NCBI GenBank assembly: GCA_014190215.1
Contig: BJGB01000001.1
Location: 1 to 59,545, forward strand
Source: Actinomycetes bacterium
GTDB taxonomy: Bacteria; Actinomycetota; Acidimicrobiia; Acidimicrobiales; Ilumatobacteraceae
Direction of reading: 5' to 3'
DNA: 59,545 nt
How positions within the stretch are numbered: position 1 is the first letter of the stretch; each line of letters opens with the position of its first letter. The notes beneath the pieces are model-generated. The model did no database searches. It saw only the letters and a program-made list of their open reading frames with translations, and was not told the origin of the DNA. Both the position numbers and the translations under genes were made by a program. This document shows positions 6,195 through 22,915 of this stretch, piece by piece.

Positions 6195-6728
6195 TCAACC
6201 GCCGACTGGTTCGGAAGTGAAGTTAGGGTCAAAAACCCATGCGCCTGGGACGAACCGCTCACCGAGTGAACTCAAGTCAGCAAGGAACATCACCGGTTCA
6301 GAGTCCGTCGGAATCTTGACCGAGAAGGTTCCCGTATAGACCTCTTTGGATTGAAGTGTGCGGGCACCGAATTGTTCAATACCAGGAGTGGTGTCTGAAA
6401 TGTATGACTTGCCATCAAGGGTGTAGACCCGAAACATCTCTGGTGTGATTGAAAACAGTTCAAGCGATCCACTTGTTACTGTCACATCGAATGAAAAAGT
6501 TTCATCTTCGCCAACATTAGGAATGCCGATGGATATTTCAGCGTTACCGAGAGCAACCCGCTCGTTGGGTTTATAGGGAATCTGATTGATGTCCATAGGC
6601 AATACCGGGTTGGGTTGACCAACCTGCACCTCAGGTGGTGACGTAGTCACCATTGGGTCATCACCGCTACAGGCAGAGCCGAGTAGCGGCAGGCATACGA
6701 CAAGTGCCGCGAGAATGGCTCGTCTCAT
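6195..6728 (-). CDS. lipoprotein of unknown function
   Basis: Signal peptide with lipobox LLGSAC. The body is beta-rich. The start overlaps the pstS stop (ATGA at 6725-6728). Confidence 0.6.
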   Translation of the reverse strand: MRRAILAALVVCLPLLGSACSGDDPMVTTSPPEVQVGQPNPVLPMDINQIPYKPNERVALGNAEISIGIPNVGEDETFSFDVTVTSGSLELFSITPEMFRVYTLDGKSYISDTTPGIEQFGARTLQSKEVYTGTFSVKIPTDSEPVMFLADLSSLGERFVPGAWVFDPNFTSEPVGG

Positions 6729-8272
6729 TTTTTCACCGAGGGGCGAAGGCGAGTGGCGACAAGAGGAGGAGCGAACATGATGAGGAGGATAATCATGGCG
6801 ATCAATAAATAAACGGTCGTTGAAGTTCCAGAGCCACTCTCTTCAATAATGACGCTTGTGGCCATAGCGATTCCTGGTGTTGGTATCCCCGAGGCATCGC
6901 CCTCGGTGCCTGTTCCGGTTCCGGTGTCTGTTCCGGTTCCGGTGTCTGTTCCGGTTCCGGTGTCTGTTCCGGGTGCGAATGTGGTATCTGTTCCGGTTCC
7001 GGTGTCTGTTCCGGTTCCGGTGTCTGTTCCGGTTCCGGTGTCTGTTCCGGGTGCGAGTGTGGTGCCTGTTCCCTTATCAACCAAAAAGTCCCCAGTGATT
7101 GTTGGATTTGAGCATTCCCTAATCGGTGGTGCTGCGATTGCACCTGGAATTTGTCTGATCGCGTCAAAACCAAATTCGACTAGGTTTTTTGGAAGTGGTG
7201 CGTAACCCAACTGTTCGGCTTTTTGCTGACCAGCACACAAAAAGTAGATGATGAACTTTGAGAGTGCTGCTCCCTTAGAGGCGTTAAAAGGTGCAGCTTC
7301 TGTGGTCGGCACGATCATGTACGAATAACTCGAAACTGGGTAAGCACGAGGATCGCTGTTGGTGTACACGCCACTAAGTACTTGGGTACCGTCGTCATTA
7401 ATGCGCGCGCCCTGTAGTGCAATGGTCACATTGACTGCCGCTGGTTGAGTGAACTTGCCAGCTTTATTTTTGACAGATGCCACCGGAAAGCCGCGCTCTT
7501 TGGCATATCCATATTCAACATAAGTAATCGCGCCTTCGTTGTAGGGAGCGGCGACATAGTTGGCAACGCCGTCGGAATACTGCTGGGCGGCAAACCCACT
7601 GGAGTCGTAATCTGGGTACAGCGATGTTGAGGGACAACCACTTCCAAGATTGGCGCGTTCGCAGAGGTAATTCCATTGGGTGGGCGCTTGACTTAACAAG
7701 TATGCAGTCATTTGCGCGGTACTTCCCGAACCGTCTGAGCGAATGACTGGCTTGATGCGAGTAGCGGGCATGACACGTTGTGGATTGTCGGCCACAATTG
7801 CTGGATCATTCCAAGTACTGATCTCTCCACTAAAGATCTTGCCCAAGGTGATCGGCGACAATTGCAAGTCAGTAATCTTTTGGCCGTTAGACTTGAGGTT
7901 ATACATGAAGGACGAACCACCAGCCACGATTGGCAGATACGCGTAAGGTCGTGAGGCTGCTGCTGCCGTTTCATCTGCCGCGATGTTGCCAGCGGCATCG
8001 CGCAGAGCTTTTTGAAATGGGATTTCAGAAACAGCAAAGTCAACTTGACCTTGATAGTAGGCGGCACGGCCGGCCGTTGAACCGACGCCTTGGTAGTTGA
8101 CTATTAATCCTTGGCGAGCGACATCGGCGCGCCACTGGTCGACCGCAATTTGACTCCAAGTTGAACCTGCACCATCAATCGGAGATTCCGCATGGACGAT
8201 TGACGGGGTGATGACGGTCAAGGTGGTCATCGCCGCTATCAACCCGAGAAGGATTTTTTTGGCGTAGTTCAT
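6725..8272 (-). CDS. pstS: phosphate ABC transporter substrate-binding protein PstS-family, with C-terminal (GTGTDT)n linker and transmembrane anchor
   Basis: Sec signal (VHA/ES). GAGSTWSQIAVDQW...VNYQGVGSTAGRAAYYQGQVDFAVSEIPF is the PBP-like-2/PstS signature. The C-terminus is repeat, hydrophobic helix, then RLRPSVKK. Confidence 0.85.
   Translation of the reverse strand: MNYAKKILLGLIAAMTTLTVITPSIVHAESPIDGAGSTWSQIAVDQWRADVARQGLIVNYQGVGSTAGRAAYYQGQVDFAVSEIPFQKALRDAAGNIAADETAAAASRPYAYLPIVAGGSSFMYNLKSNGQKITDLQLSPITLGKIFSGEISTWNDPAIVADNPQRVMPATRIKPVIRSDGSGSTAQMTAYLLSQAPTQWNYLCERANLGSGCPSTSLYPDYDSSGFAAQQYSDGVANYVAAPYNEGAITYVEYGYAKERGFPVASVKNKAGKFTQPAAVNVTIALQGARINDDGTQVLSGVYTNSDPRAYPVSSYSYMIVPTTEAAPFNASKGAALSKFIIYFLCAGQQKAEQLGYAPLPKNLVEFGFDAIRQIPGAIAAPPIRECSNPTITGDFLVDKGTGTTLAPGTDTGTGTDTGTGTDTGTGTDTTFAPGTDTGTGTDTGTGTDTGTGTGTEGDASGIPTPGIAMATSVIIEESGSGTSTTVYLLIAMIILLIMFAPPLVATRLRPSVKK
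6906..7072 (-). repeat. coding tandem repeat: 18-nt unit (GTGTDT) nested in two 78-nt super-repeats
   Basis: ggttccggtgtctgttcc is iterated. The landmark ccgggtgcga recurs at 6969 and 7047 (78-nt offset). It encodes APGTDTGTGTDTGTGTDTGTGTDTTF twice. Confidence 0.9.
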
Positions 8273-9123
8273 CAGCCAAATCTTCCGTTGACGTAGTCAT
8301 TCGTCCGTGGATCAACTGGGTTACTGAAAATTTCTCGAGTTGCGCCTTCTTCAATGATGCGTCCAGGCTCGTTTTCAGCAGCCAAGAAGAAAGCGCAACG
8401 ATGCGAAACGCGCTGCGCTTGTTGCATGTTGTGGGTGACGATGACGACCGTGACCGTTTCGCTGATTTCGCTGATTGTCTGCTCAATACGCCGTGTTGAG
8501 GTTGGGTCAAGAGCCGAACACGGTTCATCCATAAGGAGGACTTGGGGACTCACCGCAAGAGAGCGAGCGATACACAGACGCTGTTGCTGGCCTCCTGACA
8601 AAGCCCGACCTGGGTCACCGAGGCGATTTTTTACTTCGTTCCATAGTCCGGCTTTAGTGAGACAAGATTCAATGAGGTGATCTCGCTCAGCACGGGTGAC
8701 CTTCATCCCGGACAACTTCAGACCGGCCACAACATTTTCAGCGACCGTCATGGCGGGGAAAGGGTTTGGCTTTTGGAAAACCATGCCGATACGACGTCGA
8801 ACGTCGGTCACAGGAATTGCTCCACGATAGATGTCGACGCCGTCAATGAGAATTTCACCGGCAAGAGTTGCTGATGGAACAAGTTCGTGCATGCGGTTGA
8901 GGGTTCGTAAGAAAGTGCTCTTTCCGCAACCAGAAGGTCCGATGAGAGCGGTGACTTGGCCTGGTGCCATGTCAAGGTTGACACCTTCAAGAACTTTTTT
9001 TGTTCCAAACCAGCAGGAAACGTTTGTCGCTGTTAATCCAGCGGCCTTATGCCCTGGGTCAAGTAGTGCAATGTCGCTTGACATTTGCGACTCCCTAGTG
9101 TGGGTGATATCGATCGACGTCAT
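8272..9123 (-). CDS. pstB: phosphate ABC transporter ATP-binding protein PstB
   Basis: GPSGCGKST Walker A, LSGGQQQRLCIARS signature, LLMDEPCSALDP Walker B, MVFQKPNPFP. Start taken at the ATG at 9123, which overlaps the pstA stop (ATGA). The track ORF extends to 9252. Confidence 0.95.
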   Translation of the reverse strand: MTSIDITHTRESQMSSDIALLDPGHKAAGLTATNVSCWFGTKKVLEGVNLDMAPGQVTALIGPSGCGKSTFLRTLNRMHELVPSATLAGEILIDGVDIYRGAIPVTDVRRRIGMVFQKPNPFPAMTVAENVVAGLKLSGMKVTRAERDHLIESCLTKAGLWNEVKNRLGDPGRALSGGQQQRLCIARSLAVSPQVLLMDEPCSALDPTSTRRIEQTISEISETVTVVIVTHNMQQAQRVSHRCAFFLAAENEPGRIIEEGATREIFSNPVDPRTNDYVNGRFG

Positions 9124-10256
9124 GCCAATCCCTTTCGTTGTAGTCGTCGCTTTTTCGAACGACTGATGTGATCTGGACCTCGTCCACCTATAGCTCGGGC
9201 GATGATGAAGAGCACCAGCACCAAGATGACTAGTACGAATGCTCCGGTCCACGCCCTCTGAACTTGCGCCTCTTGTGGAAATCGAATTAATCGGAAAACG
9301 AAGTACGGAAGGGAATCTTGTTTCCCAGAAAATGGATTTGCGTTCATCACGAAAGCTCCACCAACGGTGAGAATCAGTGGAGCAGTTTCACCAATGACAC
9401 GTGCCACTCCCAAAATAACTGCGGTGACGAGACCAGATCGTGCCGTCGGAAGAACGACGCGAGAGGTTGTACGCCATTCAGTGCCACCAAGAGCGAGGGA
9501 CGCTTCACGAAGTCCACCTGGTACGAGTCGTAACACCACTTCAGATGTGCGGGTAACCGTTGGCAAGAACAAAACAGCAAGAGCGAGGGAACCTGCCAGC
9601 CCATTTTGTTGATTACCCAGAGCCAAGATCCAGGCCGCATAAATGAATAGGCCGGCGACGATTGATGGAACAGCACTCATGGCATCAATGATTATTCGTA
9701 AAGGCTTGGCAAGACGACCATTCACCTCATTGAGGTATACGGCGGTGGTGATTCCGAGAGGAACAGAAATCAAACTTGCGAGCCCGACCTGTTGAAGTGT
9801 TCCGATAATCGCGTGGGCACCACCACCTTCAGTGGAATCGCTCAGTGCTCCGACGAATTTCTGATCTTGGGTGAAAAATTGCGGACGAAGTGAGTGGTAT
9901 CCCTTGCCGATGACATAGACCAAGACCAAGATCAGCGGCACAACTGCGGCCATACCACCAGTCCAGATGAAGGTTCGCGCCAAATGATCTTTGGCTTTGA
10001 CTGCGCCACGTAGTTCCCAAACTGCCACTGTGGAAATAATGTTGAAAAATACATACCAACACACCAAAAATCCAAGTACACCAGAAACTGGCAGCAAGAT
10101 TTGGAAGAAGAAGTAACTCAGTGCCAATGCCGAAACAGCAGAGCCACTCATCACGATGACATCGACTATTTCGATATCGCGAATCTTGATACGTTCTTCG
10201 GTGTTGATCTTGTCTTCGCTACTGTCGTTCAGAGTCCTGTTCAGAGTCGTTGTCAT
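9120..10256 (-). CDS. pstA: phosphate ABC transporter permease PstA
   Basis: Polytopic membrane protein with IIDAMSAVPSIVAGLF and an EAA-like loop (EASLALGGTEW). Start at the ATG at 10256, 2 nt after the pstC stop. Confidence 0.9.
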   Translation of the reverse strand: MTTTLNRTLNDSSEDKINTEERIKIRDIEIVDVIVMSGSAVSALALSYFFFQILLPVSGVLGFLVCWYVFFNIISTVAVWELRGAVKAKDHLARTFIWTGGMAAVVPLILVLVYVIGKGYHSLRPQFFTQDQKFVGALSDSTEGGGAHAIIGTLQQVGLASLISVPLGITTAVYLNEVNGRLAKPLRIIIDAMSAVPSIVAGLFIYAAWILALGNQQNGLAGSLALAVLFLPTVTRTSEVVLRLVPGGLREASLALGGTEWRTTSRVVLPTARSGLVTAVILGVARVIGETAPLILTVGGAFVMNANPFSGKQDSLPYFVFRLIRFPQEAQVQRAWTGAFVLVILVLVLFIIARAIGGRGPDHISRSKKRRLQRKGLA

Positions 10257-10257
10257 G

Positions 10258-11277
10258 TCAGATCTCCGTTGACGCGCCGGATCGGGACTTACTGACGACA
10301 GTTGATGCTGCGGCATTCACAATCAGAGTGATGACAAAAAGCACAAGACCAGCAGCCATCAGAGCGCTGATCCCAAAAGTGCTGGACTCGCTGAACTTGA
10401 GAGCGATTAAGGCGGCAATGCTATTCGACCCTTGGTCAAGGATTGACCACTTGGCATCAAAGGAAGGCGAGATGATCAACGTCACGGCGATCGTTTCTCC
10501 CATCGCTCTGCCGAGGCCGAGCATTGAGCCACCGATGATTCCACCGCGCCCGAAGGGTAAAACCACATCGCGTACGACGCCCCAGCGTGTCCCTCCGAGG
10601 GCCATCGCTCCTTCGCGCTCACCAGCGGGGGCCTGTGAGAAGACTTCGCGCATAACGACTGTGCAGATTGGGATGACCATCAGTGAGACAACCACGCCAG
10701 CCACGAAGGTTGAAGAAGGGAAGAGACCAAGCGACGTTCCGTACTGGTCGTCAACGGTGAAGAAGGGCACCCAACCGAGGTGATCAGCCATCCACTTTGA
10801 CAAGGTGATTAATCTTGGTTGCAAATAGAAGAGTCCCCAGAGGCCATAAATAAGGCTGGGAACAGCTGCCAACAGATCGATCATTGCCGTGAGTATCCGA
10901 CGCAGTTTTCGTGGGGCGTACTCGGTGATAAAGAGAGCGGTGCACAAAGCAACGGGTACCGCAATGACCAGTGCCACTAAAGCAATTTGGACGGTGTAGG
11001 GGAGCATTGCGGCGACACCGAAGGCACCACCTTGGTCTGGGGCCCAAGCTGATTCGGTAAGAAAACTCCAACCAGCGACACGAAGAGCGTCATACCCTTT
11101 CACCAGTAAAAAGGTTCCGATGAGACCCATTAAAATGAAGGTCGTCACACTTGCAGTAGTTGCAATTCCTCGAAAGATTTGGTCTGCGCGAGAGCGGCGA
11201 ACTACTGGGGTGAGAACGTCACTTGTGGAGGTCACCGGAGTGCCTTCAGACAAGATATTCTCGCTCATTGTTGCCAC
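10258..11277 (-). CDS. pstC: phosphate ABC transporter permease PstC
   Basis: ITEYAPRKLRRILTAMIDLLAAVPSLIYGLWG and REGAMALGGTRW are typical PstC motifs. Confidence 0.9.
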   Translation of the reverse strand: MATMSENILSEGTPVTSTSDVLTPVVRRSRADQIFRGIATTASVTTFILMGLIGTFLLVKGYDALRVAGWSFLTESAWAPDQGGAFGVAAMLPYTVQIALVALVIAVPVALCTALFITEYAPRKLRRILTAMIDLLAAVPSLIYGLWGLFYLQPRLITLSKWMADHLGWVPFFTVDDQYGTSLGLFPSSTFVAGVVVSLMVIPICTVVMREVFSQAPAGEREGAMALGGTRWGVVRDVVLPFGRGGIIGGSMLGLGRAMGETIAVTLIISPSFDAKWSILDQGSNSIAALIALKFSESSTFGISALMAAGLVLFVITLIVNAAASTVVSKSRSGASTEI

Positions 11278-11391: not shown

Positions 11392-13353
11392 GTGTCGCAT
11401 GTGAACGGTCGGACAAAAATCTCAAGACCAGCGAGCAGGGTTGTGTTACGACAGCGCTTTGCTTTGATCCTGGGACTTTTGTCTGTTGGGATGATTAGCG
11501 TTTCTTTAGGTGGGCACCGGGTCAGCGCTGAGCCACCTGCCAGGGTCGACGCAGTCGGCGTAGGCACCGGTGGGCGAAGCGGTGTTGCGAGTCCTGGGAC
11601 TTTGTTGACGAACGAGGTGATAACGGTTTCTTGGAGTGGGTTTAATCCAACCCAACAGAATGGTAATTACGGTGTATTGATTGTCCAATGTAAGTCCAAC
11701 CCACTGTCAATGGCGGACTGCTTCACGGCCTTGCCTTATCCTGACTTGGCAAATGGAACGCGCGTCCTGAGCACCACAAACGGTGATGGGACTGGTGCCG
11801 CGCGAATCGAAATTCGAGCTACGAATTACCTTCCCTCACTTGCTTGTTCTTCAACTAATCCATGCTCAGTCATGGTTTATGAAAATGATGGTGTGCCAAT
11901 CTCTGCGGATGGTCTTCCAGCGAATCGGAACATTATTGACTTGACATTTGCTCAATCGCAAGCAGATTGTCCTGCCATTAGCGACTTCGATGTTCGCGCT
12001 GATGGGTCAGCAACCTCTGCGGAGCTGTTCTATGATTGGGCTGCCCGATTGTGCACTGGGAATAATTCTGTGGTCCTGGATTACACAGAGAATTCAAGTT
12101 CATCGGGTCGAGAAAATTTCTTAAATGGATTGACGGACTTTGGTGTCTCGGCTTTGCCTGCCACTGCCGAAGAGCTTGCTGCGCACCCTGAGTATCGCGA
12201 CTTCACTTATGTCCCACTCATGGCCAGCGCCGTTGTTATCGCCTACAACTTTGTTGATCCCTATACAGGAACTCAGTTGGACAATGTCGTGCTATCACCG
12301 CGATTAGTGGCCCGTATCATTACGAATAGCTCGTTAGAAACATTCTTTTTAGATCGCGAACTTTTGAGATTGAATCCAGGTGTTCGCTTTCCGACAGGGA
12401 CTCTTGCTAGACCACTTCTTCGAGCTGAACGAAATGCGGACACCCGAATTCTCACATCGTGGTTTTCATCTGACGCGGGTGCAAAATTATTTTTGGCGGG
12501 CGCCGATACATATCGAATTCCTGTCAATCTCGCCTATGCGGGGTACCCCTATCCACAGGATCTCTTCGAAACAGTGTCGTTAGACAGCGAATATTTTCCA
12601 CGACAAGGTCAACGCGCCAATGCGCTTCGTCTCTTTTATGGTGTGACCTCAAGAGGCATCTTTAAAGAAAATACAAGTTTGACCGGACTAGTCAGTATTT
12701 TAGATCTTCCCACGGCGAGACGATTTGGTTTAAAGGTTGCCAAATTGGCACAGAGCGATGGAACATCCTTGGCTCCTAGCGATGAGGCAATCCTCGCGGG
12801 TATTGACGACATGGATAGCTCTGCCGAGGGTGTCTTAGTGAGCGACCCAACACCCGAGGACCTCACTGCTTACCCATTAGTGAAAATTGATTACGCATTA
12901 GTCCCAAAAACAATAGGTGAACAGATCAAGTTAGAAAAAATAAAACGCGTCCTTAAATTTGCCCTGAACGATGGTCAGACCGGTCTACCGAGTGGCTACG
13001 TGGCCTTACCAGAGGCGATCAGGTTGGAAGGCATCAGTGCATTGAAAGAAGTATCTGGGACCACGACAACCGTGACGCCGACCACGGTGAAACCGTATCG
13101 TCCTCCCACGAACACTGTGGCGTCAGATACGTCTATGACGAGTACTACCGCGATACCAACCACGACAAGCACCACCACGACAAGCACCACCACGACAAGC
13201 ACACTGTCTCCGATAACGGTGCCCGTAGCAGTTGGTGGTTTGCCGAGTTCTGGTACATCTAAATCTGGGATTTTATTTGCAGGCTTGATTGGTTTATCTG
13301 GGGCAACACTGCTGGGAACCATCAGACCCCGTCAGAAAGCAAGACGTCGATGA
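11392..13353 (+). CDS. PstS-family (PBP-like-2) secreted protein with C-terminal LPSSG sorting-signal-like tail
   Basis: N-terminal signal/anchor. ADGSATSAELFYDW...LDYTENSSSSGRENFLNGLTDFGVSALP parallels the PstS signature. Thr-rich linker, then LPSSG (13240-13254), a hydrophobic stretch and RPRQKARRR. Confidence 0.7.
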   Translation: MSHVNGRTKISRPASRVVLRQRFALILGLLSVGMISVSLGGHRVSAEPPARVDAVGVGTGGRSGVASPGTLLTNEVITVSWSGFNPTQQNGNYGVLIVQCKSNPLSMADCFTALPYPDLANGTRVLSTTNGDGTGAARIEIRATNYLPSLACSSTNPCSVMVYENDGVPISADGLPANRNIIDLTFAQSQADCPAISDFDVRADGSATSAELFYDWAARLCTGNNSVVLDYTENSSSSGRENFLNGLTDFGVSALPATAEELAAHPEYRDFTYVPLMASAVVIAYNFVDPYTGTQLDNVVLSPRLVARIITNSSLETFFLDRELLRLNPGVRFPTGTLARPLLRAERNADTRILTSWFSSDAGAKLFLAGADTYRIPVNLAYAGYPYPQDLFETVSLDSEYFPRQGQRANALRLFYGVTSRGIFKENTSLTGLVSILDLPTARRFGLKVAKLAQSDGTSLAPSDEAILAGIDDMDSSAEGVLVSDPTPEDLTAYPLVKIDYALVPKTIGEQIKLEKIKRVLKFALNDGQTGLPSGYVALPEAIRLEGISALKEVSGTTTTVTPTTVKPYRPPTNTVASDTSMTSTTAIPTTTSTTTTSTTTTSTLSPITVPVAVGGLPSSGTSKSGILFAGLIGLSGATLLGTIRPRQKARRR

Positions 13354-14192
13354 TTACTCATCTCAAAGATGGCAATCGACGCGCCCGACTGCGTTGGGTG
13401 GGGAGCATTGTTTTGTGTGGCGTTCTTGGGTTATTCATCTACAACAAGGCGATGACGCCTCTGTCGCAAGATCGTGCCCAAGAACTCATGGAGAAAGATT
13501 TTGTTCCAGCACTGCTGAATGGTGAAGTTCCAGTCGGTTATCCCATCAGTAGGGGGACGGCAGTCGCGTTACTGGAAGTTGATGAGTTAGATCTTCGGGC
13601 TGTTGTTGTTGAAGGCACTCAAAGCGAAGACTTGGCAAAGGGTCCTGGGCACCTCGTCGGCTCAGCATTGCCGGGTCAGCCTGGCACCTCAGCGATTCTG
13701 GCTCACTCGAACACATACGGTTCGACGTTTGCTCGACTTAATGAATTGCGGCCTGGCAGTGATATTTCAGTGACCACGGGTCAAGGCAAGCACACCTACA
13801 AAGTCGTGGATTCAACTGTTCGTTCTGCGAGTGATTCAGCAGCTTTCCTTGGTGAACGCAATATGTTGTTGCTCATCACTGGCGCTGGGGGCACATCACC
13901 CAACCAAAGACTTGTTGTGCGCGCCGAGTTAACGTCTCCGGTTTTCCCCTCGGGTCTTGCTGACGAAAATGCGAACACTTCAACCAGCGAACTAGGACTT
14001 GAGGGTTCTTCACAAGCCCCAGGGCAAGTAGTTCTTTGGCTTCTATTTTTGCTTGTCTTACTATTGATTTCAACCCCGATCATTGACTTTGTCGGTTCGC
14101 GAGTGGGTTGGCTTCTTTGTGCTCCGGTGCTTCTCGTTGTCGCTCTTCAGATTTGGCGAAATGCGAGTTTGATGTTCCCCGCTATCGGTTAG
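13350..14192 (+). CDS. sortase (class E-like) homolog lacking the catalytic cysteine
   Basis: GPGH, ALPGQPG, AILAHSNTYGSTF, LRPGSDISV and LLLITGAGGTSPNQRLVVRAEL are collinear with the sortase E core. The TLxTC Cys position is GGC (Gly) at 13881-13883. The ATGA overlap with the upstream gene indicates coupling. Confidence 0.7.
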   Translation: MITHLKDGNRRARLRWVGSIVLCGVLGLFIYNKAMTPLSQDRAQELMEKDFVPALLNGEVPVGYPISRGTAVALLEVDELDLRAVVVEGTQSEDLAKGPGHLVGSALPGQPGTSAILAHSNTYGSTFARLNELRPGSDISVTTGQGKHTYKVVDSTVRSASDSAAFLGERNMLLLITGAGGTSPNQRLVVRAELTSPVFPSGLADENANTSTSELGLEGSSQAPGQVVLWLLFLLVLLLISTPIIDFVGSRVGWLLCAPVLLVVALQIWRNASLMFPAIG

Positions 14193-14308: not shown

Positions 14309-15937
14309 GTGAATTTCAAGAAGTTGTCAATGATGGCATTGTCCATCGCCTCACTCGCTGGGATGCTGGCCATTCCAAGCCAAGTCCACGCAGGAGCAGA
14401 TTCCTCGACCGGCGACATTTTGGGCGTGGCTGGATCCGATACCACCTACTATGTGATGAACGCTCTTGTGGATGCCCACAACCTGAGCACGCGGTATAAC
14501 CCGAATAAAGACAAGGCTGTCAACATTCCACCGTTGGTGAGTGCAAATGCCAACGTTGAAGTTGGTGAAGCCTCACTGGCAACTACCTCATGGCTTAAAG
14601 ATGCACGTTTGGCATGGCCAGGTGGAGCAGTACTCCCTGCCGATGCAAACTGCACGACGCAGTATGTATTTGGCGGCGCAGGATCTGTGGACACGCTTGG
14701 AGACGGAGACGTGTCTGGTACTTCTGCACCTGACATCGATGTCCCATTCACGCCAGTCACGTCGGTTCCTGGTGGACCATCAGGCAGTACCTACACCGTA
14801 AGACTTGGTGTGCAACCTCCGAACGGTTCAGGTGATGGACGTAACGCACTCAAAGGCTCGGCCGTCAAGGGTGTTACCTACAACACAATTACCAACGATT
14901 TTGCTTGCCTCGATATTGCTCGCTCATCGTCTTATCCAACGTCAAGCGATGTGCCGTCAAACCTCGAGGCCTGGGCCTTTGCGCTGGATGCCATTGGTTG
15001 GACATATTTTCCAGGAAACACCCACTCGTCGTCAATTGCTGCTGGTCTCACGACAACACAATTGAACAACATCTATCAGTGTGCAACCGCCAGCGTTGAC
15101 AACAGCACTCCGCCTGATGGTGATTACACCGATGTCGGCGATCAAAAAAATGGTTATCCGAAGTGGCGTTATTGGGGCGACATTAGTGGTGATAAAACCG
15201 ATACGACAGCCATCGCCGCGTATCGAGTTCAGGCAGGTTCTGGTACTGGAAAAGACATTGCACAAACGTTCATGGGACGCACCGACGGCATTGACTCAGA
15301 AGTGCTGAAGAACTGCGACAGTTCCACAAACAATACAGATTCGGATACGGCTACAACTTGGACTTTCCCCATTGTTCAAGAGCACGATTGCCGCAACGTC
15401 TCTGATGCCAATAAGCCCCATGCCATTTGCTGGTACGGATATAGCCGTTGGGTGCTTCAGTCCCGTTCGCTCGAAACAGATAAGCGTAATGGCGCGATCT
15501 TTGGCAAGTATGGAACTTCCACAACTGACATGAAGCGTCCTTCGTTCAGTTCAATCAACGACACTGCGAATCGTTACATGGGAACTCGTTGGATCTACAA
15601 CGTCATTCCACAGAATGCCAGTGCTGATGTTGGCCGCTCAGGGGACGCTCGTCGATTTGTTGGTGTCTCAAAGCAGTCTGCTGCTTGTGTCGCAGCGGCT
15701 GTAGCAAGTGTGATCAACGAGACAACGATGACACCAGCAACCGATTGCAACTTTGACGGTGACGTCACCGACACCAGTGTCGCTCTTGGCGGCGTACCTG
15801 GCTACATCTGTGGTGATGCTGTAGCTCGCCGGATCATCGCATCATTTGGCTTCAAGCCACTTGCAATGGGTACCACCGATTTGGCTAGTGCTGATTATGG
15901 CCAGTCCTACTGCCGTCGCAACAAGTCCGCATTCTGA
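14309..15937 (+). CDS. secreted PBP-like-2 (PstS-related) domain protein, Cys-rich
   Basis: GTG start after AAAGGAGA. Signal peptide ends in VHA. GVAGSDTTYYV and NGSGDGRNALKG...LDIARSSS resemble a divergent PstS-like signature. Confidence 0.55.
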   Translation: MNFKKLSMMALSIASLAGMLAIPSQVHAGADSSTGDILGVAGSDTTYYVMNALVDAHNLSTRYNPNKDKAVNIPPLVSANANVEVGEASLATTSWLKDARLAWPGGAVLPADANCTTQYVFGGAGSVDTLGDGDVSGTSAPDIDVPFTPVTSVPGGPSGSTYTVRLGVQPPNGSGDGRNALKGSAVKGVTYNTITNDFACLDIARSSSYPTSSDVPSNLEAWAFALDAIGWTYFPGNTHSSSIAAGLTTTQLNNIYQCATASVDNSTPPDGDYTDVGDQKNGYPKWRYWGDISGDKTDTTAIAAYRVQAGSGTGKDIAQTFMGRTDGIDSEVLKNCDSSTNNTDSDTATTWTFPIVQEHDCRNVSDANKPHAICWYGYSRWVLQSRSLETDKRNGAIFGKYGTSTTDMKRPSFSSINDTANRYMGTRWIYNVIPQNASADVGRSGDARRFVGVSKQSAACVAAAVASVINETTMTPATDCNFDGDVTDTSVALGGVPGYICGDAVARRIIASFGFKPLAMGTTDLASADYGQSYCRRNKSAF

Positions 15938-15969: not shown

Positions 15970-17985
15970 ATGAAGAAGTTTTCATTATGCGCTTTGTCGG
16001 CGTTGGTGGGTTCTGGATTGGTTATGGGGTTCGCGCCACAGACACCAGTCTTGGCCGCTACGTTGACAAGCGCGACATTGCTAGTACCAACAGCAAATGG
16101 TGCCGTGGGTGATGCTGGATTGGGCGAAGCCTGGGGCGTGGATACAACGCTCGTCGGGACGACCCGCTGGACGGTATTTGAGTCCGGAGCAAGCAACGTC
16201 ATCACCAGCGATACCAATATCGCGTCCGATATTTTTGTGACTAATGGAACCACGGTGACTCGTTTGTCCGTCGCCGCCAATGGAACCGAGGGATCAAACC
16301 TTGCTGCAAGTTATGACCCGAGCATTTGTGCTAGTGGACGCAAAGTCGTCTTCACCACAGACAATGAATGGGACACTACCGATGCCAACGGTTCTCCCGA
16401 CGTGTACGTCATTGACAGAGATGCCGACGAAGACGGCATTATGGACGAATTCAGCCAAGCCAATGCTGTCACACAAACGTTGGTCGGCTCGTCCTACAAC
16501 TCAACGACCGGCGAATACAACATTGCTTTCACCGGCACATCATCTGGAGTCATCAGCGATGATTGCACCAAGGTGGCTTTCGTGACAGACATGGATTTCG
16601 ATTCCGAAGATTTCAACTTCGGTCCCGATGTGTTCGTGCGAGATCTGACATCTCTTGCCACACCGGTTTCCTGGGTAAGCAAGTTTGCAACCAACGGATC
16701 TGTTGGTGGCGGCTTTGTGCCTGCTATCAACTCTGATGGAACGCTTGTTGTGCTGGCCACCGAAGCGACTGATCTTGTAAGTGATACCGGGACTAACGGT
16801 GGTTTGGTGCGCCGTGTCATAGCCTCAAGCGTGAGTTCATACTTGACAAGTAAGCCAAGCGGAGTCTCATCAACAACAGCGCTTGCTGACGGCGAACGTC
16901 CAGCAGCGATGACCCCTGATGGCAAGTGCGTCGCTTTCAAGGCAGACCGCGGGTATGACCTCTTAGCTGGTGCTAGCGGTCCCGCACAGGGAATTTTCCT
17001 GTGGGATAACCGTACTGGAACCGCCGTAATTTCCTTGGTGAGTAAAGACTCACTTGGTATCGCCGCGAGCTCGGCATCGAACCCACGCATTTCGGATGAC
17101 TGTCGTTTCGTGGCTTACGACTCAAACGATGAATTTCTGTCAAGCGAAGACACCAACGGAAAAACCGACGTGTTTTTGCATGATACTTTAGTTGCGACAA
17201 CTGACTTGGTGTCGACTCTGGCCAATGGCAATAGTGCTGACGGCAATAGCAGTGTTGCTGCTCTTGATTGGAATCCGACGACTCGATCTGGAGTCGTACT
17301 CATTACCTCCAACGCCTCAAATATCGGTGGAGCCAGTGGTGCAGGAAGCATCAACCTTTTTTCGGTTCCGTTCTCTGTGGCTGCTGTTGCTGGTGCGCCG
17401 ACGATTGGTACTGTGACTGCGAGTGCCGGCAAATTGACGGTGGCTTTTACGGTACCGTCATCTGATGGTGGTGCGTCGATCACTAACTATGAGTACTCGA
17501 CGAATAATGGTACGACGTGGAAAGCGTTCAGCCCTGCTGTCACGTCATCTCCGTTGGAGATCACCAAGCTTTCAACTAGTACTGCTTCGCTGGTTAATGG
17601 CACCACGTATCAAGTGAAGATTCGTGCTGTGAACTCTGCTGGTAGCGGTGCAGCGAGTGCAGCGAAGTCTGGTAAACCGTTCACGGTTGCTGGTGCGCCG
17701 ACGATTGGTAGCGTGACTGCGAGTACAGGCAAGTTGACTGTGGCTTTTACTGCTCCGTCATCTAATGGTGGTGCGACGATCACTAACTATGAGTACTCGA
17801 CGAATAATGGTACGACGTGGAAAGCGTTCAGCCCTGCTGTCAAGTCAACTCCGTTGGTGATCACCAAGTTGTCAAACAGCACCCAGAAATTGGTGAAGGA
17901 CACCACATATAAAGTCAAGATTCGTGCCGTGAACTCTGCCGGTGGCGGAGCAGCGAGTGCAGTAAAGAGCATTAAAGCTAAGTGA
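15970..17985 (+). CDS. secreted PD40/TolB-like beta-propeller protein with two C-terminal fibronectin type III domains
   Basis: Signal peptide. Repeated S.DG..vaF......g..DVyv.D motifs (PDVYVIDRD, PDVFVRDL, TDVFLHDT). Two FN3-like modules of about 100 aa (ITNYEYSTNNGTTWKAF...YQVKIRAVNSAG). Confidence 0.7.
   Translation: MKKFSLCALSALVGSGLVMGFAPQTPVLAATLTSATLLVPTANGAVGDAGLGEAWGVDTTLVGTTRWTVFESGASNVITSDTNIASDIFVTNGTTVTRLSVAANGTEGSNLAASYDPSICASGRKVVFTTDNEWDTTDANGSPDVYVIDRDADEDGIMDEFSQANAVTQTLVGSSYNSTTGEYNIAFTGTSSGVISDDCTKVAFVTDMDFDSEDFNFGPDVFVRDLTSLATPVSWVSKFATNGSVGGGFVPAINSDGTLVVLATEATDLVSDTGTNGGLVRRVIASSVSSYLTSKPSGVSSTTALADGERPAAMTPDGKCVAFKADRGYDLLAGASGPAQGIFLWDNRTGTAVISLVSKDSLGIAASSASNPRISDDCRFVAYDSNDEFLSSEDTNGKTDVFLHDTLVATTDLVSTLANGNSADGNSSVAALDWNPTTRSGVVLITSNASNIGGASGAGSINLFSVPFSVAAVAGAPTIGTVTASAGKLTVAFTVPSSDGGASITNYEYSTNNGTTWKAFSPAVTSSPLEITKLSTSTASLVNGTTYQVKIRAVNSAGSGAASAAKSGKPFTVAGAPTIGSVTASTGKLTVAFTAPSSNGGATITNYEYSTNNGTTWKAFSPAVKSTPLVITKLSNSTQKLVKDTTYKVKIRAVNSAGGGAASAVKSIKAK
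17386..17985 (+). repeat. tandem 300-nt duplication encoding the two FN3 modules
   Basis: gttgctggtgcgccgacgattggt recurs at 17386 and 17686. Long runs of identical nucleotides (e.g. atcactaactatgagtactcgacgaataatggtacgacgtggaaagcgttcagccctgctgtc) occur in both copies. Confidence 0.9.
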
Positions 17986-22837: not shown

Positions 22838-22915
22838 TGGTCGGGGTGAGAGGATTTGAACCTCCGGCCTCCACGTCCCGAACGTGGCGCGCTAGCCAAG
22901 CTGCGCTACACCCCG
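22838..22915 (-). tRNA. tRNA-Pro (anticodon CGG), CCA encoded
   Basis: The reverse complement CGGGGTGTAGCGCAGCTTGGCTAGCGCGCCACGTTCGGGACGTGGAGGCCGGAGGTTCAAATCCTCTCACCCCGACCA folds as a cloverleaf. The anticodon loop is TTCGGGA. Confidence 0.9.

Follow-up and report, generated by a model that had tools for sequence, protein, structure and literature searches.

The DNA analysed here, a window of 59,545 nucleotides (contig BJGB01000001.1 of an actinomycete of the family Ilumatobacteraceae), encodes a membrane protein of 280 residues that has the fold of a sortase and carries glycine in place of the catalytic cysteine. This protein, here called the pseudo-sortase, is almost certainly a member of a large, ancient and conserved family of Cys-less sortases that is linked to the Pst phosphate transporter loci of Actinomycetota. 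Within the sortase fold the family forms a branch of pseudoenzymes under strong purifying selection, with an architecture of its own and a conserved and unexpected genomic role, and it is apparently undescribed. As to what such a protein does, the explanation towards which we lean overall is that of a dead, Pst-linked sortase which acts as a receptor or tether. A preliminary description of the window, made from the sequence alone, had offered three readings of the gene: a recently inactivated sortase, a sequencing or assembly error, or a non-catalytic protein with the sortase fold. The last of these is strongly supported by the homologs, by selection and by the fold. The gene and the parts of its product are located as follows:

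13350 to 14192, plus strand: gene of the pseudo-sortase, a Cys-less sortase-fold membrane protein of 280 residues (open reading frame, Pfam, AlphaFold, Foldseek and the ratio of nonsynonymous to synonymous substitution rates, dN/dS)
13350 to 13353, plus strand: ATGA stop/start overlap with the upstream gene, a translational coupling (sequence)
13398 to 13463, plus strand: N-terminal transmembrane (TM) helix, about residues 17-38, following the basic cytoplasmic segment KDGNRRARLRW (hydropathy; model helix 2-56)
13560 to 13931, plus strand: extracytoplasmic sortase beta-barrel, about residues 71-194 (Pfam match 75-194; model strands from E71-77 to E186-194)
13653 to 13655, plus strand: Leu102, at the position of the substrate-recognition Tyr of class E (GHY to GHL; mapped via 5cuw)
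13704 to 13706, plus strand: His119 (CAC), in the column of the catalytic His; Arg (CGC, CGG or CGA) in other close orthologs
13881 to 13883, plus strand: Gly178 (GGC), in the column of the catalytic Cys, LLLITG against TLxTC (HMMER and 5cuw alignment)
13908 to 13910, plus strand: Arg187, equivalent of the catalytic Arg (Cys+9; R329 of SrtE1; mapped via 5cuw)
14016 to 14168, plus strand: C-terminal hairpin of two TM helices, residues 223-273, the hallmark of the family (model helices, pLDDT 93-95)
14172 to 14189, plus strand: extreme C-terminus MFPAIG-COOH, residues 275-280, predicted to be extracytoplasmic from the inferred topology

All sequence blocks singled out in the preliminary description (LAKGPGH, ALPGQPG, AILAHSNTYGSTF, LRPGSDISV, HTYKV and NMLLLITGAGGTSPNQRLVVRAEL) are present in the translation of this open reading frame. 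Residues 75-194 matched the Pfam sortase domain PF04203 from position 1 to 124 of its 125 positions (E = 1.6e-22; 80 bits against a cut-off of 26.6). The only NCBIfam cut-off passed was that of TIGR01076 (sortase_fam), with 42.5 against 39.35. The top NCBIfam match was the class E sortase model NF033747, which was aligned only over its positions 63-159 and scored 74.1 bits against a cut-off of 160; distant members of the family scored 74-82 bits with the same model. The earlier comparison with class E therefore holds in part: class E supplies the best NCBIfam match and the nearest relative, but the score of 74 bits falls well below 160 and the class E Tyr is a Leu.

According to reviews all sortases carry a His-Cys-Arg triad (PMC8225981), and the active site is described within the motif TLXTC (PMC11231552). 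When the pseudo-sortase was aligned to solved sortases with HMMER, LLLITG fell opposite LVTLITC of Actinomyces SrtC-1 (2xwg), in agreement with the earlier reading of the nucleophile box as L-I-T-G with Gly for Cys. The sites were mapped by counting residues along the SrtE1 chain (5cuw), with an intact relative as a bridge. In 5cuw the Tyr of the GHY motif lies 91 residues ahead of the Cys and the Arg 9 residues after it, corresponding to Y229, C320 and R329 of SrtE1; by these spacings G178 is equivalent to Cys320, R187 to Arg329 and L102 to Tyr229. In SrtE1, Y229 is the Tyr of the beta3/beta4 loop that reads Ala at P3 of LAxTG, and in the family this position is occupied by L or R. Arg187 is invariant in the Ilumatobacteraceae clade, but across the wider family only about one member in two has Arg at this position. 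Two further details of the preliminary description proved correct, namely the GGC codon one transversion from TGC and the presence of only two Cys residues, which hydropathy and the model identify as C23 and C256, both in predicted TM helices. The pseudo-sortase is thus a member of the sortase fold superfamily. It has no Cys with which to act as an enzyme of this type, and its score, the missing Tyr and the lack of an LAxTG partner set it apart from class E, which is its nearest relative and not its class.

The absence of the cysteine is not peculiar to the window. The protein collection gave 650 homologs, and in the best 120 of these the Cys column held Gly in 91, Val in 27, Ala in one and Cys in none. 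In freshwater Acidimicrobiia (Ilumatobacteraceae and their relatives) the column read G, V, M or L across 19 species-level genomes. A profile search over 1.84 billion cluster representatives yielded 240 clusters at E <= 1e-30; among the best 150 of them were 148 new representatives of clusters at 50% identity, none of which had Cys at the nucleophile column. After a second profile search the column could be read for 264 members, which had Ser (139), Ala (91), Thr (12), Gly (9), Val (5), Met (2), Leu (2), Asp (1) or a gap (3), and not a single Cys. The loss is therefore common to at least 148 clusters at 50% identity, drawn from several actinobacterial orders.

The catalytic histidine has been lost almost as widely. 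Arg occupied its column in 234 of the 264 members (89%), His in 18 and Lys in 8, and the consensus at the triad positions of the family is G-R-R or G-R-S. Because one pattern used to scan metagenomes contained GRR, the His-column statistics from loci L060-L139 are biased toward Arg and the other sets were used instead. The preliminary description had noted that the His was retained. This is true of the window protein and of a relative 83% identical to it, the only two with Ala-His (GCT-CAC) at this site, but not of the other close orthologs, which have Gly-Arg (GGY-CGN), nor of most of the family. By parsimony His119 is best read as a derived, secondary change from Arg to His (CGC to CAC), since the CAC of the window is one transition away from the CGC of its relatives.

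The eleven orthologs compared are collinear with the window gene over 280 codons and have intact open reading frames with no signs of pseudogenes. Their dN/dS was 0.06-0.15 overall and 0.06-0.10 in the barrel, and the codon for Gly at the Cys column is GGC, GGA or GGT depending on the lineage of the ortholog. The comparison of orthologs proposed in the preliminary description thus gave a conserved Gly in an intact gene with dN/dS below 1. A nearly identical protein was also found on independent contigs (P0001, with four sequences on two contigs).

Modelling with AlphaFold returned the eight-stranded beta-barrel fold of sortases. An alignment of 26 sequences gave a mean predicted local distance difference test (pLDDT) score of 64 with the catalytic strands unresolved and was discarded; the model used here was built on an alignment of 135 sequences and reached a pLDDT of 88 and a predicted template modelling (pTM) score of 0.83. 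It comprises a helix from residue 2 to 56 which includes the TM segment, the barrel (71-194), a linker of low confidence and the two helices of the C-terminal hairpin (223-248 and 250-273). The top 50 Foldseek matches in the PDB were all sortases. The template modelling score (TMt) was 0.82 for 4d70 and 0.78 for the SrtE structures 5go5 and 5go6, the latter with a root mean square deviation (rmsd) of 1.8-1.9 A.

The hairpin is the architectural mark of the family. In the collected loci, 90 of the 92 open reading frames whose match extended into the hairpin were Cys-less, while those without it were ordinary His/Cys sortases. Behind the hairpin follows a short tail with the consensus [LM]-[LYF]-P-[SNA]-[TIL]-[LG]-COOH, in which the residue at -4 is Pro in 363 of the 367 members. 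In the model the tail region has a pLDDT of 86. With a basic N-terminus and two C-terminal helices that cross the membrane and return, the protein is predicted to expose this LPxTG-like tail to the outside, where the barrel also lies. It may be a pseudo-substrate in cis, or a latch.

The preliminary description did not recognise that the gene lies in a conserved cluster for a Pst phosphate transporter. The genes of this cluster in the window are:

6195 to 6728, minus strand: conserved protein of 177 residues (174-179 in Ilumatobacteraceae loci) that closes the pst operon, with a signal peptide ending in Cys (...LLGSAC)
6725 to 8272, minus strand: PstS, 515 residues (TIGR00975, 203.9 bits, just below the cut-off of 205; PBP_like_2, E = 5e-36)
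8272 to 9252, minus strand: PstB ATPase, listed as an open reading frame of 326 residues (TIGR00972, 333.6 bits, just below the cut-off of 343.2)
9120 to 10316, minus strand: PstA permease (TIGR00974, 250.6 bits, above the cut-off of 193)
10258 to 11277, minus strand: PstC permease (TIGR02138, 264 bits, above the cut-off of 196)
11392 to 13353, plus strand: PstS-like partner of the pseudo-sortase, 653 residues, with a signal peptide, a divergent PBP_like_2 domain, a Thr-rich stalk, PITVP, LPSSG, a TM helix and a basic tail (profile matches and hydropathy)
13240 to 13254, plus strand: LPSSG of the partner (sequence)
13264 to 13326, plus strand: TM helix of the partner, followed by RPRQKARRR (hydropathy)
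14309 to 15937, plus strand: secreted protein of 542 residues with N-terminal GSDTT and C-terminal GF-x-PL...C
15970 to 17985, plus strand: secreted protein of 671 residues that carries two FN3 repeats; its gene is the last conserved one in the plus-strand operon (Pfam and locus comparison)

The arrangement is the same in both clades of Ilumatobacteraceae. On the minus strand they have pstC, pstA, pstB, a PstS of about 515 residues and a protein of about 175 residues, and on the plus strand a PstS-like protein of about 690 residues, the pseudo-sortase with its overlap of 4 nucleotides, a protein of about 550 residues and an FN3 protein of about 670-780 residues. The ATGA overlap with the gene of the LPSSG-tailed PstS paralog, described earlier for the window, was preserved in 11 of 11 orthologous loci, and an overlap of 4 nucleotides was also present in loci L001-L006, L058 and L059. 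A locus from a metagenome-assembled genome (MAG) of Acidimicrobiia has the layout of the window. Four MAGs from lake metagenomes (L009, L010, L011 and L017; CAMAYS01, CAMDCI01, CALPPJ02 and CAMDER01) also carry the Acidimicrobiia-type locus; their records are titled 'Bifidobacterium breve', and these organism names look wrong.

The linkage also holds far outside this lineage. In Phytohabitans suffuscus a permease, a PBP_like_2 protein and three large proteins are followed by the pseudo-sortase and a pstB-like ATPase; in Cellulomonas soli permeases, a PBP_like_2 protein and a protein of 864 residues precede the pseudo-sortase, and a second PBP_like_2 protein follows it. At the P0133 locus the pseudo-sortase gene stands between genes of the size of binding-protein genes and an ATPase gene. 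Usually the gene directly 5' of it encodes a large secreted protein that is anchored by a TM helix at its C-terminus. The linkage was counted in loci with at least 3 kb of flanking sequence on both sides, taking a Pst-type permease of at least 200 bits or a PstB of at least 300 bits as evidence of Pst genes. By this count Pst genes accompanied the sortase gene in 29 of 29 Cys-less loci (12 of 12 without close relatives) and in one of 20 loci with an active sortase (Fisher p ~6e-8, calculated on loci that are not phylogenetically independent).

The protein encoded immediately upstream of the pseudo-sortase is a distant paralog of PstS (PBP_like_2, E = 3e-10; TIGR00975, 75 bits against a cut-off of 205). 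Its C-terminus, with LPSSG, a TM helix and RPRQKARRR, resembles a sorting signal but has Ser at the position of the scissile Thr. Among the open reading frames of the window only this protein and the PstS of 515 residues have C-termini resembling sorting signals. Detection of open reading frames in DNA of high G+C content often picked spurious frames, and tails of partners from other loci were accepted only if they had an evident TM helix and a basic end or came from existing gene calls. Such tails always begin with a low-complexity stalk, continue into a hydrophobic helix and end in basic residues. The motif itself is far less constant. The partners in the window's own clade have LP[GSD]SG, with one LPGPS, while those of the sister clade have EDFSG, SAMGA or QSMGA at the equivalent position and no LPxTG-like motif. 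Many distant partners have only a motif [HR]-L-[VIL]-[LF]-P at the start of the helix. A canonical LASTG occurs only in the Phytohabitans partner and in one metagenomic partner, with LPSTG and LPLTG in two other loci. The LPSSG motif of the protein taken earlier for a putative substrate is thus conserved only in the closest clade; the sister clade lacks it, and in the family at large it varies. The textbook signals belong to the Cys-less loci L057:6310-8001 (Phytohabitans suffuscus), L075, L094 and L101, and in every case a TM helix and RRRR come after the motif. An example is (DG)n-GGGGGS-LASTG, and a housekeeping SrtE might process partners of this kind.

The role of receptor or tether can be pictured as follows. 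Binding proteins of monoderm bacteria are normally lipid-anchored. In the way that a sortase reads a sorting signal, the barrel and TM helices of the pseudo-sortase would still be able to recognise the partner by its juxtamembrane segment and TM helix. As no cleavage would follow, the protein would serve as a non-catalytic receptor or tether. In this way the C-terminally anchored binding protein would be kept in the membrane, probably beside the PstCA permease, rather than passed on to the cell wall, and the tether would stand in for the usual lipid anchor. Built from the anatomy of the proteins and the context of their genes, this mechanism seems to us plausible, if on the doubtful side of an even balance. 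More tentatively still, the dead sortase barrel might be an unrecognised integral accessory of actinobacterial phosphate importers, in which an Arg-rich pocket would hold either a PstS-type anchor or the protein's own LPxTL-like C-terminus, and an ancestral wall-anchoring pathway would have been turned into a device for tethering or assembly.

Several observations weigh against the tether. The motif of the partner is poorly conserved in the family as a whole, and any peptide that is recognised is not a fixed pentapeptide. The groove might be filled by the family's own [LYF]-P-x-x-x-COOH tail instead of by the partner. The Cys-less sortase module is also found fused to other domains, once to a GT2 glycosyltransferase (P0246) and twice to PASTA (P0236 and P0253), which hints at functions in the cell wall or with glycans beyond the tethering of substrate-binding proteins. 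The Phytohabitans partner ends in a signal with a perfect LASTG, and in that organism it may still be the substrate of a separate, active SrtE. Finally, one protein of 980 residues (P0194, L056:8001-10943, on a contig of 3.15 Mb) combines PBP_like_2 and the sortase, together with a neocarzinostatin-like Ig domain, in a single open reading frame at a locus with pst, phoU and response-regulator genes. Its value as Rosetta-stone evidence had to be downgraded: it is a single case from a long-read MAG, in which an indel of one nucleotide at the overlap of 4 nucleotides would mimic a fusion, and it could be an artefact of the assembly.

Of the other explanations, the one that survives best makes the pseudo-sortase a subunit of the Pst transporter complex, with a structural or regulatory role, that does not bind the partner's tail. 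Its own C-terminal tail would dock in the groove in cis or in trans, and the Arg-rich pocket would bind the carboxylate or an anionic or phosphorylated ligand. The near-invariance of Pro at -4, the predicted position of the tail (pLDDT 86) on the side of the barrel, the replacement of the catalytic His by Arg within a GRR motif in 89% of members and the place of the gene between binding-protein genes and pstB in several loci all speak for such a subunit. We nevertheless consider it unlikely, for the window protein has His-Ser and not Arg-Arg or Arg-Ser at the site in question, and the sortases with an active-looking site at loci L128 and L118 already bear the C-terminal Pro motif, which must therefore predate the loss of catalysis.

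The pseudo-sortase might instead work together with an active housekeeping sortase, either as a factor that presents the partner or confers specificity, or as a decoy that protects it, so that the signal is processed or spared by an enzyme encoded elsewhere. The retention of LP[GSD]SG in the closest clade next to a Cys-less gene would be understandable on these terms, as would the canonical LASTG, LPSTG or LPLTG of the Phytohabitans partner and of three metagenomic ones, and active sortases do occur in Acidimicrobiia (L048). The sister clade and many distant members, however, maintain the pseudo-sortase under the same constraints with partners that have no LPxTG-like motif, and no second sortase was found within the 59.5-kb window. 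Cooperation of this kind is improbable in our view, somewhat more so than a self-docking subunit.

It is very improbable that the protein is still an enzyme using another nucleophile, such as a Ser in the Cys column or Thr177, which is invariant. Although Ser or Thr fills the Cys column in 151 of the 264 members, the window protein has Gly and 34% of the family Ala; since about 40% of members have Gly, Ala or Val as the residue in the nucleophile column, and the His that would act as general acid/base is mostly Arg, residual catalysis is unlikely. The catalytic Arg is not conserved throughout the family either, and ordinary sortases (TLxTC) conserve the Thr ahead of the Cys just as well, so that it is not specific to this family. 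As for the two remaining readings of the preliminary description, the single transversion between GGC and TGC speaks in their favour, but the chance of either is negligible: independent assemblies, hundreds of homologs without Cys (Gly in 91, Cys in 0 of 264) and the synonymous variation of the Gly codon exclude a sequencing or assembly error, and a loss shared by at least 148 clusters across orders, with intact reading frames and a dN/dS of 0.06-0.15 (about 0.1), excludes a recent inactivation.

The two active-looking sortases bear on the origin of the family. The protein at L128:7110-8687 (plus strand) has an intact GHY, AGHR, TLTTC and Arg together with the same C-terminal hairpin, ends in ...FLPASI-COOH and has its best matches in SrtF and SrtE; its gene follows immediately on pstC, pstA, a pstS-like gene and pstB. 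The protein at L118:2-652 (plus strand) likewise combines an intact site with the C-terminal module and Pro(-4) tail of the family. With its gene in this place, the L128 protein may represent the active ancestral state. On the simplest history, a class E-like sortase dedicated to a surface protein of the Pst locus would have lost its chemistry first, and in many lineages the canonical motif of its substrate would then have been lost as well, the sortase and partner genes remaining coupled throughout.

The pseudo-sortase shares features with several known systems. With class E sortases (SrtE1 of S. coelicolor, 5cuw; SrtE of S. avermitilis, 5go5; SrtF of C. diphtheriae, 5uus) it has in common the barrel (TMt 0.72-0.78, rmsd 1.8-2.1 A, 24-29% identity), the N-terminal TM anchor, the motifs GPGH and PGQxG and the actinobacterial distribution (for the features of class E see PMC5148588). 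It differs from them in having no Cys (Gly178), Leu for the Tyr, Arg for the His in the family and a score of half the cut-off, and in its additional C-terminal TM hairpin and C-terminal Pro motif. Its gene lies in a pst operon, whereas class E genes are found beside those for chaplin-type or other LAxTG substrates (PMC5148588). Class C pilus sortases, of which 2xwg, 3rbj and 7d6t were among the Foldseek matches, resemble it in having membrane segments at both ends of the barrel, and their lid, which occupies the active site (PMC11231552), is a precedent for a tail acting in cis. Unlike the pseudo-sortase they have an active His-Cys-Arg site and polymerise pilins, and their lid is N-terminal, while the possible lid of the pseudo-sortase is its extreme C-terminus; no pilin genes are present at its locus.

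The iRhoms offer a parallel from outside the sortases. They are rhomboid pseudoproteases that have lost their catalytic residues, are under purifying selection and are thought to bind client TM proteins. Both they and the pseudo-sortase are dead protease folds embedded in the membrane and conserved, although fold and kingdom are unrelated (iRhoms are mentioned in PMC7065720). With respect to the transporter, the PstC and PstA of the window pass the equivalog cut-offs of the canonical PstSCAB system and PstB and PstS are borderline. Canonical PstS is a lipoprotein, whereas the window cluster has a PstS without a lipobox and with a C-terminal TM helix after a stalk, and it adds two PstS-like paralogs, the FN3 protein and the pseudo-sortase.

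A search of the literature turned up neither a Cys-less family of sortases nor any sortase linked to Pst, which agrees with the view taken earlier that no Cys-less class had been described; most subscription journals were outside its reach, and a prior description is possible. NCBIfam has no model dedicated to the family. Actinoplanes missouriensis has five sortase candidates of 792, 273, 184, 240 and 247 residues, assigned to class E or F (PMC13251363); their lengths do not make any of them look like a family member.

In public databases members of the family are named 'sortase', 'sortase A', 'class E sortase' or 'class D sortase'. Such names lead to false predictions of cell-wall anchoring for many Actinomycetota, abundant freshwater Acidimicrobiia among them. 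The recruitment of the sortase fold for a non-catalytic job adds a case from the bacterial cell surface to the concept of the pseudoenzyme. Phosphate-uptake loci, for their part, hold unrecognised components in the form of a C-terminally anchored PstS, extra PstS paralogs and the pseudo-sortase, which may bear on the scavenging of phosphate in oligotrophic waters. As the system is carried by cultured organisms (Cellulomonas soli, Phytohabitans suffuscus, Actinokineospora alba and Actinotalea), the hypothesis of a tether is directly testable.

Some features of the neighbouring genes deserve mention. The near-canonical PstS of 515 residues has no lipobox; its stalk is made of (GTDT)n repeats, and it is anchored by a C-terminal TM helix with a basic end (...EESGSGTSTTVYLLIAMIILLIMFAPPLVATRLRPSVKK). 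Tethering of PstS by a C-terminal TM helix is unusual in a monoderm bacterium, and the PBP proteins of L056, L057 and L059 are built in the same style. The listed open reading frame of pstB overlaps pstA by about 130 nucleotides. It is probably over-extended at its N-terminus, with the true start lying downstream, because the match to PstB begins at residue 74 and the orthologs have 283 residues. The protein of 177 residues that closes the pst operon matched no family, and that of 542 residues had no match in Pfam or NCBIfam. The GSDTT and GF-x-PL of the latter recur in PBP_like_2 proteins whose genes come just after that of the pseudo-sortase at loci of Cellulomonas and Acidimicrobiia; from these motifs and its position it is likely to be a third, unanchored PstS-like paralog. 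In the protein of 671 residues the FN3 repeats (residues ~475-670, at the C-terminus) are nearly identical and in tandem, AGAPTIG(T/S)VTAS.GKLTVAFT.PSS.GGA.ITNYEYSTNNGTTWKAFSPAV... The window as a whole has a G+C content of 52.4%, and its only Rfam and ARAGORN matches were a tRNA-Pro(CGG) at 22838-22915 on the minus strand and a tRNA-Thr(TGT) at 38983-39057 on the plus strand.

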